The position numbers and the translations under genes were made by a program. The notes under the pieces were generated by a model. The model was not told where the DNA came from and made no database searches. It saw nothing but the letters and a program-made list of their open reading frames with translations. A stretch of DNA of 45,371 nucleotides, from contig CAZSTA010000005.1 in assembly GCA_964609495.1 (NCBI GenBank), forward strand, positions 1 through 45,371, in the 5' to 3' direction. The DNA is from an uncultured bacterium (lineage in GTDB: Bacteria > CAZSTA01). Positions 3 through 36,771 of this stretch are shown in pieces (position 1 is the first letter of the stretch; each line of letters opens with the position of its first letter).

Positions 3-866
3 AAGCCAAAAGGTTGGTTAGCACCTTCTATTCAGCACAAATTAGATTCACATCTTAGGATAATAGAGAAGGTTAAGGAGATATTACCTGTTACCAAAAT
101 TGTTATAGAGGTAGCCTCATTTGACACTCAGAAGATGCAGGATCCGGAAATTAAGGGGATTGAGTACCAGCAGGGGGAATTACAGGGCTATGAGGTTAAG
201 GAATACTTATTAGAGAAGTGGGGTAGGAAGTGTGCTTATTGTGGAAGGTTTAATATTCCACTTGAGGTAGATCATATAATTCCGAAGAGCCGAGGTGGGA
301 CAGATAGAATAAGTAATCTAACAATAGCTTGTAAAGAGTGTAATAGGAAGAAAGGGAACAGAACAGCAGCAGAATTCGAGTATCCAGGGATACAGGAAGA
401 GGCAAAAAAGTCATTAAAAGCAGTAGCATTTATGAATGTGGTAAGGTGGAGATTAGTTAATAAATTAAAAGAGATGGGTAATGATGTCTCTCATACTTAT
501 GGGTATATCACGAAGCAGAGACGGATAGAATTGGGACTGGAGAAGTCACACCATAATGATGCGTTTGTGATAGCTGGAGGTAAGGGACAAGAAAGATGTG
601 AAGTCTTTATGGTTAAGCAGAATAGAAGAAATAATAGAGGTTTACAGTTGAATAGAAAAGGATATAAGCCAAGCATTAGAAGGAAGAGGTACCAATATCA
701 GCCAAAAGATTTAGTGAAATTGGAGGGGAAAGTTTACGTTGTGGAGGGGATGTTTAATTATGGGAAGTGGGTGCGGATGATAGATAAGGCAGGTAATACG
801 CTGGATGTGGCTATATCAAAGATAAGTTTATTAAAATATCAGAAGGGATTAGCTTTTGGATATTAA
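3..866 (+). CDS. iscB: IscB RNA-guided endonuclease (IS200/IS605 OMEGA), 5' end outside window
   Basis: Frame is open from base 3 ([30 protein letters not shown]). Contains YQQGEL, CAYC, HNH ([16 protein letters not shown]) and RuvC-III SHHNDA motifs. Confidence 0.93.
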
Positions 867-872
867 GTCTAT

Positions 873-913
873 AGGCGTTTCATCCCCTACCACATTGTTT
901 TCACGCCGGTTTT
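873..913. mobile_element. Degenerate IS200/IS605 end downstream of iscB, followed by ATAA
   Basis: GGCGTTTCATCCCC..GTTTTCACGCCGGTTTT|ATAA has the same layout as the intact end at 30135-30181, but the inner hairpin is collapsed. Confidence 0.6.
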
Positions 914-962
914 ATAAAGTAAGATAGGAAATTATCTTCTCTAAATCTGGAGGTGAAGTGAA

Positions 963-1550
963 ATTAAGAGAATAGCTGATATTCTAACTTTATCAAGGTT
1001 ACTCATCAGCATTTTAATTGTGCGTTGGGGTCAGATGTTGGGTAAAAGCGGTTTAGAGATTGTTATTGCGGCACTTCTGATCGGCTGGACCACTGATGTC
1101 CTAGATGGTCCAATAGCTCGAAAAGATCCTAACTGGCGGAAAAATTTAATCGGAGATAGCGACTTTTTGATAGACGTCGCTCTAGTAGTATCAATACTCT
1201 GCTATTTAACTTTTAGCGGTTTTGTCTCCTCAAGGCTGGCCCTAATTTATTTCCTCGTAGCTAGCCTATTCGTATTTCGCTACCGCTCTCAAGCTGTTAC
1301 GATGGCGTTTATGGCTCCGGTTGATGCTTTTATAATATATGTGGCTTGGCGAGATTCTAATTTGTGGGGGTGGGCGATCATACTTTGGATTATTGTTATA
1401 TTGCTTTTTGATTGGCATCGCTTCACCCAAGTAGTTGATAATTTTATCCAAGGGATGGGAGAGATACTATCCAGAGGCAGAAATGATAATACTTTGTTGA
1501 ATACAATTAATAGCTGGCTATCCCTTCCCGGAGGTATCGATTATAGGTAA
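963..1550 (+). CDS. CDP-alcohol phosphatidyltransferase family membrane protein
   Basis: TDVLDGPIAR..G..D..D motif. The conserved-looking N-terminus IADILTLSR lies in frame upstream of the track start (1020), so a start at ATT 963, 7 nt after GGAGGTG, is proposed. Confidence 0.8.
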   Translation: MKRIADILTLSRLLISILIVRWGQMLGKSGLEIVIAALLIGWTTDVLDGPIARKDPNWRKNLIGDSDFLIDVALVVSILCYLTFSGFVSSRLALIYFLVASLFVFRYRSQAVTMAFMAPVDAFIIYVAWRDSNLWGWAIILWIIVILLFDWHRFTQVVDNFIQGMGEILSRGRNDNTLLNTINSWLSLPGGIDYR

Positions 1551-33132: not shown

Positions 33133-34431
33133 TTACCACTGACGTCCTTTCAAACGTCCCTTCTTCATAAATCCCTCGTAATGGCGCATCAAGAGATGTG
33201 ATTCTATCTGCTTCATTGTATCCATTGCCACCCCTACAATGATTAGCAGAGAAGTTCCCCCAAAATAGAAGGTCGTGATCCCCGTGACCCTGATCATAAT
33301 CTGAGGCAAGATGGCGATCGAAGCTAAGAAGATAGCTCCGGTTAAGGTTATACGGGATAGGGTTCTATCAAGATAATCCGCGGTTGTTTTCCCCGGTCTG
33401 ATGCCGGGAATAAAGCCACCATACTTCTTCATATTATCGGCTACCTGTATCGGGTTGAAGGTAATAGCGGTATAGAAGTAGGTGAAGAAGATGATCAATG
33501 CACAATAGACCAGATTATACCAAACTCCACTTGGACTTAAGGCATTTCCCATCTGTTTGAAAAAACCCCAGCCCTCGGGGGCATACTGAGCTATCGTTCC
33601 CGGAATAGCTAGGAGGGATACCGCGAAGATGACCGGAATAACCCCAGCGTGATTCACTCTGAGAGGTATATAGGTGCTCTGTCCTCCGTAAACCTTTCGT
33701 CCCACCACTCTCTTAGCATAACGCACTGGGATCTGACGCTGACCTTGTTCAATTAGAACTACCGCGCCGATGACAATGACTGCGATAGCAAGGAAAGCTA
33801 AAACTGATACAGGACCGAAGTTAGTTCCATATAACTGAGCAGTTCGCTTTATCTCGAAGGGATAACGAGAGATGATGCTGGTAAAGATGATGAGCGATAT
33901 CCCATTTCCGATCCCAGACTCGGTTATCCTCTCTCCTAACCACATCAGGAAGGCTACTCCAGCCGTTAGGGTCATTACCATAGTGATTGTAAAAACCCAG
34001 CCGGGATTAGCTACCGCTCCCATTCTCTCGACCCATATACTTAGACCAAAGGCTTGCAAGGCGCCAAAGAAGACCGCTCCATATCTGGTATATTGATTAA
34101 TCTTACGACGTCCTTCCTCTCCCTCTTTGGCTAACTTCTCCAACTGAGGAATTACCACTTGGAGCAATTGCATGATAATCGAGGCGTTAATGTAAGGGAT
34201 TATCCCCATAGCGAAAATCGTGAAGTTCTTAAATGCTCCTCCAGCAAAGAGGTCTATAAGGTCGAAGAGCCCCCCTCCTCCTTGCTGGAATAACTGAGAT
34301 AGCTTAGTCGGATCGATCCCTGGAGTGGGAATATGAGCGCCAATACGATAAACGATCAATAGAGCTAAGGTAAAGAGTATTCTCCTCTTTAAATCGGGCA
34401 CCTTGAAGGCATTAGCTAAAGCCTTTAACAA
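33133..34431 (-). CDS. secY: Preprotein translocase SecY
   Basis: GIIPYINASII, GIGNGISL, FIPGIRPG, GGTSLLI. Confidence 0.99.
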   Translation of the reverse strand: MLKALANAFKVPDLKRRILFTLALLIVYRIGAHIPTPGIDPTKLSQLFQQGGGGLFDLIDLFAGGAFKNFTIFAMGIIPYINASIIMQLLQVVIPQLEKLAKEGEEGRRKINQYTRYGAVFFGALQAFGLSIWVERMGAVANPGWVFTITMVMTLTAGVAFLMWLGERITESGIGNGISLIIFTSIISRYPFEIKRTAQLYGTNFGPVSVLAFLAIAVIVIGAVVLIEQGQRQIPVRYAKRVVGRKVYGGQSTYIPLRVNHAGVIPVIFAVSLLAIPGTIAQYAPEGWGFFKQMGNALSPSGVWYNLVYCALIIFFTYFYTAITFNPIQVADNMKKYGGFIPGIRPGKTTADYLDRTLSRITLTGAIFLASIAILPQIMIRVTGITTFYFGGTSLLIIVGVAMDTMKQIESHLLMRHYEGFMKKGRLKGRQW

Positions 34432-34582
34432 ATTATATCACCTCGCGCTCCTAAAGAATTTACAAACTTGGATAATGCGATATAGCTAGCTTGTCGAGGA
34501 CGCAGAAATTGGTTTATCTCACCCTCCCCTCAAGAGAGGAGGAAAATAGAGGGTAACCCCTTCCTACATCAATTTCGGACGA

Positions 34583-35050
34583 TCAAAGTGGCTCGACTTT
34601 GATCAGGGATTCACTTACTTCTTTGAAGCGTCCTCCCGCAGCTTCGATCTTCTCCTTTGCAGCCTTGGAGAAGCGATGGGCTACCACAGTTAGAGCTTTC
34701 TCCAGTTTCCCATTCCCTAAAATCTTAACCCCATTGTTATTCTTAGTGATGAGGCCTCTCTGAAGGAGTAACTTGGGAGTGACAACGGTGTTCTCCGCAA
34801 AGGCGTTTAAGCTGCGAATATTCACTTCAGCATAATTTTTCTTATTAATATTTTTAAAACCTCTTTTGGGTGATCTCATATAAAGAGGTGTCTGTCCGCC
34901 CTCGAAACCTCGGCGAACCTTGGAGTGAGCCTTCTGTCCTTTCATCCCCCGACCTGCCGAGCCACCATGTCCAGAGCCATATCCTCGCCCTAACTTTTTT
35001 TTGCGTTTTCGCGATCCCTTAGGTGGTTTTAGTTCGTCGATTCTAATCAT
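34583..35050 (-). CDS. rplO: 50S ribosomal protein L15
   Basis: [16 protein letters not shown]. Confidence 0.98.
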
Positions 35051-35465
35051 CTTAAATCAGGCACGGAGACCCCGACTGATTTTCTTTTCAATCAGTCGGG
35101 GAGGAAGTGCCTACCCTCCTCCCTACTAAAAGTAGTTGGTGTAACAAATGCCCTTGTGGTAGGGGAGGAAGTTGATCTTACCTCCTCCCCATAACAAGGT
35201 TTGGACACTAATATAAAGTGTCCCTCCACCTCACGGTGGGTTAGAGCCTCTTCGGAGCTGTTAGCAAAGGTTTTTAAGCTTACCACACTGTCCCTACCCC
35301 CAGGACTGTTTAATAGCAAGCCACAGAGCTTGGAACGAGAGGAGTATCCCAAGGTGTGTATGTGATCTCTCTCTGCTAACTTCTGCATCTTTCGGTGCCT
35401 CCTAGTCAACCAGGGCTTGGTCTCCCAAGCCCCTACTGATTTTTTAATCAGTAGGGGTAGTTGAC
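35051..35465. mobile_element. Non-autonomous IS200/IS605 element (omegaRNA only, no iscB or tnpA), 415 bp
   Basis: Both ends present: TCAT|..GAGA-hairpin CCCCGACTGATT..AATCAGTCGGGG, and CAAG-hairpin CCCCTACTGATT..AATCAGTAGGGG-TAGTTGAC|. No target duplication. Confidence 0.9.
35203..35465 (-). ncRNA. omegaRNA / HEARO-like RNA scaffold (3' end approximate)
   Basis: Minus strand GTCAACTACCCC..GGGGCTTG..GTTGACTAG..ACACCTTGGGATACTCCTCTCGTTCCAAGCTCTGTG..TTAAACAGTCCTG..GGACAGTG..CCGAAGAGG..CTAACC matches my recollection of IscB omegaRNA layout. Confidence 0.85.
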
Positions 35466-35704
35466 TTCGCTTCTCCTTCACTAGACGATCTTGAGAGGGA
35501 GGGATCCTCCTCTATATTTAAAGAGGCTCGCTCAACCTCTAACAGATATTCCACTTCCTTGATCATCCCTCTTATAACTGGATTATCATCATGCCATACG
35601 ACCTGATTTATCTTCCTTAATCCTAAGGCCTTAACAGTTCTTCTGTGCTTTGGTATCCTTCCTATTAGGCTCTTCTTCAGAGTTACTTTGAGTTTTTCAG
35701 TCAC
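35444..35704 (-). CDS. rpmD: 50S ribosomal protein L30 with a C-terminal extension running into the element
   Basis: [25 protein letters not shown]; start is GTG 35704 or ATG 35722. Confidence 0.93.
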
Positions 35705-35784
35705 TTCTTCTCTCTCCCTCATTGCAGATCTCTCCATCTTTCTGCTATCCGACGATGTCCCTCCCCCCAAAGTTGGGCTTAACC

Positions 35785-35893
35785 AGAGGAGGAGGAATCC
35801 CCCTAAAAGGTAACTTTCGCAGAAAATCGGGGGGGGAAAATTCTCTCCTCAACCCCCTCTTATACAAATAGGATCAAGGTTAAAAAGTTACCT
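35785..35893 (+). repeat. Repeat B remnant plus repeat A copy 5 (35805-35893) with a B-like unit in its loop
   Basis: AAAAGGTAACTTTCGCAGAAAAT[CGGGGGGGGAAAATTCTCTCCTCAACCCCCTCTTATAC]AAATAGGATCAAGGTTAAAAAGTTACCT. Confidence 0.75.
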
Positions 35894-35896
35894 ACA

Positions 35897-36391
35897 TCAA
35901 GTTATTTCGCCTACTGATTTTCCTCTTACCCGAGCGACCTCCTCAGCCGTTCTAAGGGATCTTAACCCAGCTTCAGTGGCTCTAACTAGGTTTACCTGGT
36001 TAGAACTACCTAATGATTTAGTCAGTATATCCCTTATCCCAGCCATTTCCATAACGGCTCTCACCGGCCCACCGGCGATTACCCCTGTTCCTGAGGAGGC
36101 TGGTTTCAGTAGTACTTTCCCAGCGTGGAATTCCCCGATTACCGAATGGGGAATGGTAGCTCCTACTAGGGGAACGGTGAAGAGGTTCTTTCTACCATCC
36201 TCAACTCCCTTGCGAATAGCATCCGCAACTTCGTTCGCTTTACCGAAGCCGACTCCCACCCTACCGTTTCCATCCCCAACCACCACTAAGGCACTGAAAC
36301 TAAACCTACGACCACCCTTGACGACCTTGGCTACCCGGTTTATATATACTACTTTCTCCTGTAGCTCTATTTCCTCTTCAGCATTATCCAC
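35897..36391 (-). CDS. rpsE: 30S ribosomal protein S5
   Basis: [22 protein letters not shown]. Confidence 0.99.
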
Positions 36392-36408
36392 ACATCTTCC
36401 TCCTTTAT

Positions 36409-36771
36409 CTAAAATTCGAGCCCTTTCTCCCTAGCCGATGAGGCTAAAGCAGCCACCCGACCGTGATATAGATTCCCTCCCCTATCAAAGACAACCTTTT
36501 TTATCCCCTTCTGGATAGCCCGCTCGGCTATTAGCTCTCCCGCCCTCTTGGCGGCGGTGATATTTCCTCCATAGCTTCCCCTCATATCCTTCTCCAAGGT
36601 TGAAGCCGCGGCAATCGTTCGTCCCAGATCGTCATCAATGACTTGAGCGTATATATGCTTGAGGCTTCTAAAGACAGCCAATCTAGGGATCCCCGCAGTT
36701 CCATGAATCTTTCCTCTTATCCTCTTATGTCTTCTTTTACTTCTATCTCTTCTGTTTTCCTTCTTTATCAT
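36409..36771 (-). CDS. rplR: 50S ribosomal protein L18
   Basis: [20 protein letters not shown]. Confidence 0.99.

Follow-up and report, generated by a model that had tools for sequence, protein, structure and literature searches.

The window analyzed here, a 45,371-nt stretch from an uncultured bacterium (GTDB lineage CAZSTA01; contig CAZSTA010000005.1 of assembly GCA_964609495.1), contains at positions 35465-35051 a gene-less derivative (PATE) of an IscB-encoding ISC/IS200-IS605 transposon, in which the omegaRNA scaffold and both hairpins are intact and the iscB gene is gone. The element is embedded in an spc-type operon, the genes of which (rpsE, rpmD, rplO, secY, adk, map and infA) are all located on the minus strand, and occupies the gap of about 400 nt between rpmD and rplO that includes no credible ORF. 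Judged by comparison with the empty site in a related metagenome contig (L062), the insertion is exactly at N|ATGA, between rplO's Shine-Dalgarno sequence and its ATG, which are now parted by 415 nt. The features of the locus are as follows (other contigs of the same assembly are denoted by C numbers, and the window itself is C5):

34583..35050, minus strand: rplO (L15), 155 aa; Pfam Ribosomal_L27A; L15 is 91% identical in L062
35047..35050, minus strand: TAM and target site ATGA, made up of the rplO ATG and the first base of codon 2; present in 4/4 aligned copies and in the L062 empty site
35051..35465, minus strand: non-autonomous ISC/IS605-type element (PATE), GTCAAC...TTTAAG, 415 nt; from the MAFFT alignment of C5, C82, C46 and C225 and absence from L062
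35059..35123, minus strand: left-end module (fold)
35112-35107 / 35064-35059, minus strand: outer stem AGGCAC/GTGCCT of the left-end module
35101-35070, minus strand: left-end transposase hairpin CCCCGACTGATT..AATCAGTCGGGG (fold)
35123-35114, minus strand: purine run GGGAGGAGGG of the left-end module
35151..35190, minus strand: inner degenerate left-end-like module GGGGAGGAGG..CTTCCTCCCC TACCACAAGGG (by-eye comparison with the C77/C6-type left end; fold)
35203..35239, minus strand: two omegaRNA 3' hairpins outside the Rfam model (12-copy alignment and fold)
35240..35465, minus strand: omegaRNA scaffold, HEARO match (cmscan and 12-copy alignment)
35457-35430, minus strand: right-end transposase hairpin CCCCTACTGATT..AATCAGTAGGGG, inside the omegaRNA (fold)
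35466..35485, minus strand: guide segment, the 20 nt 5' of GTCAAC (sequence; L062 empty site)
35480..35510, minus strand: 31-nt segment in the rpmD tail, absent from L062, with bounds ambiguous by 1-2 nt (pairwise alignment)
35444..35704, minus strand: rpmD (L30), likely GTG start at 35704; Pfam Ribosomal_L30, E 1.2e-22, residues 3-52 of 84 translated
3..917, plus strand: C-terminal portion (287 codons) of a further IscB, truncated at the contig end, and its left end; Pfam RRXRR and HNH

Anatomy of the gene-less element

A cmscan search of the window yielded a match to RF02033 (HEARO) on the minus strand, at 35465..35240, scoring 133.7 bits (gathering score, 83; E 1e-27 for the window); the covariance model is aligned end to end, with all 211 of its positions 1-211 matched. 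HEARO is described in the preprint of Meers et al. (10.1101/2023.03.14.532601) as the IscB omegaRNA, which abuts the transposon right end and takes its guide from the flanking sequence. Given that both the HEARO match and all the operon genes are on the minus strand, the placement of the scaffold on the operon strand in a preliminary description of this DNA was correct.

In the assembly from which the window comes (349 contigs, 3.78 Mb, completeness 99.45%), full matches to HEARO number 12 and weak ones 2. Each of the 12 full copies starts with GTCAA[CT], and the 40 nt upstream are unrelated among the copies, that is, each copy has its own guide segment. The RNAalifold consensus of the 12 copies includes 63 base pairs, 32 of which show compensatory changes, and the copy at rplO forms every one of the 63; relative to the nearest copies (C77, C3 and C225), 6-7 pairs are changed on both sides and 4-6 on one side, and none is broken.

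The bounds of the element follow from four copies (C5, C82, C46 and C225), in which homology extends from GTCAAC to TTTAAG (TTTGAG in C46) and is followed by ATGA, with unrelated flanks on either side; these limits define the element as 35465..35051. In a DNA self-search, C82 and C46 are 76-79% identical to the window copy between 35465 and about 35047, and C225 shares both ends. The shared internal region suggests that the C5, C82 and C46 orphans are descendants of one gene-less element that itself multiplied. The copies diverge by 12-27%, so the insertions appear to be old or to derive from diverged sources. Among the 13 left ends resolved in the genome, nine are followed by ATGA, three by ATAA and one by ATGG.

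No iscB gene was found within 2.5 kb downstream of the scaffold. The last 3' hairpin, GGACAC..GTGTCC at 35223..35203, is common to the iscB-linked copies though it lies outside the Rfam model, and its foot coincides with the lower bound, 35203, that had been given in the preliminary description. Homology to the iscB-linked C77 copy stops at 35208. The former iscB start codon reads ATA (35214-35212) within this second hairpin. The same ATA is found in five orphans (the window copy, C225, C82, C46 and C6; alignment columns 261-279, corresponding to window 35223-35203), and the iscB-linked copies have ATG at this position, in the loop of the last hairpin. The lack of a nearby iscB together with the altered start codon identifies an orphan omegaRNA rather than a complete IscB locus.

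Both subterminal hairpins fold into perfect stems, and the left-end one is enclosed by the outer stem. The same left-end architecture, with other letters in the stem (GTCGGC/GCCGAC), is present in C77 and C6, and it is also seen in elements of other phyla. We considered covariation of the outer stem as a sign of an RNA device and rejected this interpretation: the same stem recurs across phyla whatever the context, as expected of a transposon-end feature. Upstream of the working left end, the C77/C6-type left-end-like module at 35151-35190 hints at end replacement or a nested history.

The empty site and the guide

In L062, the rpmD-rplO junction lacks the element and reads ...AAGGAGAAGCGAA|ATGAGT... 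(in a longer reading, ...AATATAGAGAAGGAGAAGCGAA|ATGAGTAGAATC...). The 110 nt of rpmD before the insertion point contain only 2 differences between the window and L062, and the comparison shows precise insertion at the 4-bp target without duplication: L062 has ...GAAGGAGAAGCGAA|ATGA..., and the window has the same flanks 415 nt apart. A search with L15 of 40 species genomes, which are domain-level relatives only (best identity 58%), yielded no useful empty site.

The preliminary description had quoted the 20 nt immediately 5' of GTCAAC and had taken them for a guide corresponding to the rplO ribosome-binding region. The quotation is accurate: the segment 35485..35466 reads TCTAGTGAAGGAGAAGCGAA. 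The identification also agrees with the L062 empty site, AAGGAGAAGCGAA|ATGA, where the Shine-Dalgarno sequence of rplO is AAGGAG, followed by 7 nt and then ATG. Because the element inserted at the rplO start codon, the 5' flank that serves as the guide is the ribosome-binding region of rplO. Thus, by sequence comparison, the predicted guide really is the former Shine-Dalgarno region of rplO and, at the same time, the 3' coding end of rpmD. The 3' 14 nt of the guide, which make up the conserved part of the ribosome-binding region, and ATGA are contiguous in L062; in the occupied allele, GTCAAC stands in place of the TAM. Within the 3.78-Mb assembly, the guide 20-mer occurs once, as does its 3' 14-mer, and no second site with at least 14 nt of the guide was found; three 12-nt matches exist, none of which is followed by ATGA.

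The insertion has also altered the end of rpmD, the stop codon of which (TAA, 35446-35444) is now inside the element, so that the ORF crosses the guide and 21 nt of the scaffold. The last six rpmD codons (STTPTD) are the first 18 nt of the omegaRNA scaffold, and the L30 protein of the relative represented by L062 ends in ...NIEKEKRNE. The 31-nt segment that is absent from L062 (about 35510-35480) shifts the rpmD frame and supplies the 5'-terminal 5-7 nt of the guide; it has no other copy in the genome.

Transcription, candidate partners and proposed retention of the element

The downstream genes of the operon require transcription through the element. On the minus strand within 34500-36500, neither a sigma-70-type promoter nor an intrinsic terminator was predicted, except for sites outside the element. 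An internal promoter was also considered and discarded, given that none is predicted on the minus strand between rpmD and the scaffold; a weak TAAATA box near 35520 was noted by eye.

Sequence words from 34400-36000 occur in 24 public runs (20 DNA, 4 RNA), and we compared the contigs of 2 DNA and 2 RNA runs. The DNA-run contigs cover 28 and 30 of the 30 bins into which this region was divided. The coverage in each RNA run is limited to 6 of the 30 bins, encompassing only the scaffold and 41-45 nt upstream, in the form of a 276-nt contig (35235-35510, depth 11.9) in one run and a 250-nt contig (35257-35506, depth 3.1) in the other, neither with a mismatch; no RNA contig over rpmD, rplO or rpsE was found in either run. 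The contigs include the unique guide along with the 41-45 nt upstream and hence come from the rplO locus, from an RNA that starts outside the element. They suggest that a stable RNA consisting of the guide and the scaffold accumulates, although the contigs themselves give no strand, ends or level, and they fit the size of about 250-290 nt predicted in the preliminary description. The 5' end of the 276-nt contig, 35510, falls exactly on the border of the strain-specific 31-nt segment and accordingly may reflect branching in the assembly instead of a terminus of the RNA. Co-transcription of the omegaRNA with the operon, which had been claimed at the outset, is thus a strong inference, based on the absence of a predicted promoter or terminator within the element and on RNA contigs that reach into rpmD, although these lack strand and ends.

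An orphan omegaRNA would have to be used by an IscB encoded elsewhere. The genome contains two full-length iscB genes, in C77 (399 aa) and C31 (413 aa), and fragments at contig ends: the N-terminal 72 codons in C3, the C-terminal 328 codons in each of C76 and C275, and the 287 codons at 3-866 of the window. The C77 protein contains the Pfam RRXRR and HNH domains and is similar to the solved OgeuIscB (E 4e-49), with the DAG, HH and NDA motif positions (RuvC and HNH) aligned. The omegaRNAs linked to C77, C3 and C31 are, respectively, 87%, 88% and 76% identical to the copy at rplO. With its element placed at an ATGA that has pyrK and pyrD on its two sides, the intact C77 IscB is, from the sequence data, a plausible candidate for the trans partner of the orphan, with C31 and C3 as further candidates. 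The listing of genomic iscB and tnpA genes called for in the preliminary description thus produced ATGA-type candidates that it had missed, but on the tnpA side only a truncated gene. As a separate observation, the C77 element lies in the stop-start overlap of pyrK and pyrD, and PyrK gains the same STTPT tail that L30 has at rplO.

The IscB at the start of the window had been noted to lie beside ATAA rather than ATGA and had been doubted as the partner, with good reason. Its left end has lost part of the hairpin and precedes ATAA (914-917), and tblastn alignments with other IscBs stop at residue 191-226 of 287, so that its C-terminal part differs from those of the ATGA types. From these sequence features, it belongs to another, ATAA-flanked subfamily and is probably not the partner of the orphan. 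In C275 (about 1290-1370 and 260-1060, minus strand), an orphan HEARO copy, likewise flanked by ATAA, precedes a tRNA-like sequence and a TnpB-like ORF that is apparently split into two frames.

The sole match to the Y1 transposase (Pfam Y1_Tnp) in the 349 contigs, which are broken at these repeats, is a truncated one, C343:1227-1433, covering profile positions 37-104 of 121. With only this truncated tnpA, excision may not occur in this genome now; the assembly breaks at these repeats, so an intact tnpA could reside in an unassembled one. In C343:1227-1640, the 3' end of the truncated tnpA adjoins a HEARO copy, the guide of which is, in effect, tnpA coding sequence. No contig joining 35466 to 35050, as expected of the excised allele, was found in the two DNA runs, in the contigs of which rare variants are dropped. 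Joints of 35081 to 35446 and of 35081 to 35200 (with sides of 20-36 nt) were considered as possible excision products and dismissed; they link look-alike hairpins and probably come from other copies.

Taken as a whole, the scenario that we consider rather likely is that of a PATE retained at the rplO start codon through a guide RNA that is made by read-through transcription and loaded in trans by an ATGA-type IscB that cuts the empty allele, with the loop probably idle at present. The element, without a predicted promoter of its own and co-directional with the operon, would be transcribed from upstream host sequence, and the structured omegaRNA with its guide would persist longer than the mRNA. 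The orphan omegaRNA could then be loaded in trans by an ATGA-type IscB encoded at another locus (C77, or the C3 or C31 copies), and the complex would cut only the empty allele, where the guide match is followed by ATGA; the occupied allele would be spared because GTCAAC follows the guide match. Should a Y1 transposase ever excise the element, IscB cleavage and repair from the sister copy would restore it. The loop is probably idle now, because the assembly contains no intact transposase gene. A point against this scenario is that the guide and 21 nt of scaffold are traversed by ribosomes completing rpmD, so that folding of the RNA could be impeded.

The locking of the element into the operon that had been proposed in the preliminary description is plausible as an application to this locus of the published donor-joint model, under which scarless excision brings the guide match and the TAM together, so that the joint is cut and the element is restored by repair from the sister copy (10.1101/2023.03.14.532601). 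The position of the guide next to the TAM in L062 fits this model; the idea is not new, however, and it requires a transposase to generate the empty allele; the truncated tnpA and the failure to find an excised allele in the two DNA runs do not support it.

The same facts bear on a reading of the element as an inert relic, a stranded, immobile mini-transposon, the RNA of which is a stable by-product of operon transcription that is not used by any IscB, and which is kept simply because nothing removes it. We regard this reading as a real but lesser possibility. It agrees with the lack of an intact tnpA in an assembly that is 99.45% complete and of an excised allele in either DNA run, with the 12-27% divergence among the copies, and with the damaged left-end hairpins in the sister elements of C31 and window 3-917; moreover, conservation of structure can be inherited from a mobile source lineage rather than kept after insertion. 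Against this reading, the copy at rplO keeps both hairpins and all 63 consensus pairs, the genome still encodes at least two full-length IscBs with catalytic motifs, and in a 349-contig assembly that breaks at repeats, tnpA could lie in an unassembled one.

Many components of the retention scenario, which we continue to favor, have precedents. Publications already cover omegaRNA elements that lack a gene, N|ATGA as the target and the shared orientation with upstream genes, and the peculiarity of the present case lies in the location rather than in the mechanism. Insertion at N|ATGA is documented for ISC elements that have 5'-GTCA ends (Kapitonov, Makarova and Koonin 2016, PMC4810608). The ISC transposons described there, including ISC1-1_MA and ISC2-1_MS, resemble the rplO element in the 5'-GTCA terminus, the subterminal imperfect hairpins, the absence of target duplication and insertion exactly 5' of ATGA, as well as in the existence of ATAA variants in the same genome and of non-autonomous copies presumed to be moved in trans by the Y1 transposase. 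The differences are that the copy at rplO has no iscB and is located inside an spc ribosomal-protein operon; start codons and operon context are not discussed in the part of that paper on which we draw. Meers et al. (10.1101/2023.03.14.532601) describe PATEs that are related to the IscB element ISGst5, a bias of IscB elements toward the orientation of the gene upstream, and TTCAT (ATGAA on the guide strand) as the TAM of GstIscB. ISGst5 and its PATEs in Geobacillus stearothermophilus, as presented in that preprint, share with the rplO element a HEARO omegaRNA bounded by the right end, the TAM, gene-less PATEs with common ends, co-orientation and applicability of the donor-joint model. In contrast to ISGst5, the rplO element has different end sequences, no intact TnpA was found for it, and its guide and target are the translation start region of an essential-type gene. 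With respect to HEARO RF02033 itself, the likeness includes the full-length match above the gathering score and compensatory changes among the 12 genomic copies, whereas the copy at rplO has no adjacent HNH or IscB ORF and carries two extra 3' hairpins outside the model, as was also observed for the model in the same preprint (10.1101/2023.03.14.532601).

The locus represents a clear natural case of an IscB guide RNA without a nuclease gene, fed by a highly expressed core operon, with the translation start region of an essential-type gene as its target. It offers a convenient test case for the trans use of orphan omegaRNAs and for translation after a split between the ribosome-binding site and the ATG, neither point being new in kind.

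Start codons as landing sites

The insertion raises the issue of how rplO is translated. The gene is of the essential type, the 20 nt preceding its ATG contain no match to a Shine-Dalgarno sequence, and the left-end module might fill this role: in the centroid fold, GGGAGGAGGG lies 1 nt 5' of the outer stem, 8 nt separate the 3' end of the stem from the ATG, and the stem is flanked by unpaired sequence on both sides. These features are compatible with an operon element co-opted for an RNA-level role that would serve either the host or the element, for instance with the left-end GGAGG acting as a surrogate rplO ribosome-binding site across the base of the stem, or with a point of RNA processing or stability that uncouples L30 from L15 and secY. 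The purine run occurs at the same place in C82, C46, C31, C77, C6, L170 and L171, and C225, the only sister copy that has lost the left-end module, is the one that is not at a gene start. We nonetheless consider such co-option improbable: the outer stem and its covariation are found in elements of many phyla, some of them not at gene starts, and are explained more simply as a transposon-end DNA feature; in the iscB-carrying copies, the purine run is in or next to the 3' end of iscB; and initiation without a Shine-Dalgarno sequence on an unpaired A/U-rich stretch would account for rplO translation equally well. Translational coupling through a mini-ORF was also examined and rejected; the candidates are a 14-codon frame and, within it, a 5-codon GTG frame, ending on the TGA of ATGA, and both are inside stems.

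Start codons are recurrent targets of these elements. For eight of the nine ATGA-flanked elements in the genome, the target ATG opens an ORF of 155-759 codons. Genome-wide, 17.5% of the 40,111 ATGA sites open at least 100 codons, which gives a binomial P of about 7e-6 for the elements, a value in which insertion preference is mixed with survival. The genes opened by the target ATG (at window 35050 and in contigs C82, C46, C31, C77, C6, C17 and C76) are rplO, a gene for a Nudix-family hydrolase, one for a 759-aa protein, rlmN, pyrD, amaP, lptC and a gene for a DMT-type transporter. When seven of the downstream ORFs were scanned against NCBIfam, six received names (Nudix-family hydrolase, RlmN, PyrD, AmaP, LptC and DMT-type transporter), and the seventh, in C46, showed a DUF11-type repeat only. 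The profile match begins no more than 12 residues from the ATG in five of the six named ORFs, and PyrD has 23 extra residues. Among 32 related IscB loci of other phyla, eight also end on the ATG or GTG of a long ORF, as assessed by eye. Start-codon landing of these elements was not found described in the literature searched.

We advance, tentatively and as a rather speculative proposition, that this ISC family is adapted to start codons inside operons. Landing at ATGA would bring co-orientation with the following gene and borrowed operon transcription for the guide RNA, and the left end may restore initiation of translation at the captured ATG, by way of GGAGG held near the ATG by the stem in the orphan, and by way of an iscB stop codon on, or a few nucleotides from, the host ATG in some iscB copies. 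If true, such adaptation would account for the tolerance, by an essential-type ribosomal gene, of 415 nt wedged in between Shine-Dalgarno sequence and ATG.

At C31:4099-4110, and likewise in L155 and L158, the left end is read through as part of the iscB ORF, which terminates at the TGA within the target ATGA, in overlap with the start of the host gene. As a rule for the family, an iscB stop on the host ATG did not hold: of 40 foreign IscB ORFs, 8 terminate in ATGA, and the ATG opens at least 132 codons in only 3 of these, which is not clearly above chance.

Elsewhere in the window, a cobalamin riboswitch (RF00174, 120.7 bits) at 1635-1818 lies upstream of a pair of genes, for a periplasmic binding protein and a permease, that resembles a B12 or metal ABC importer.
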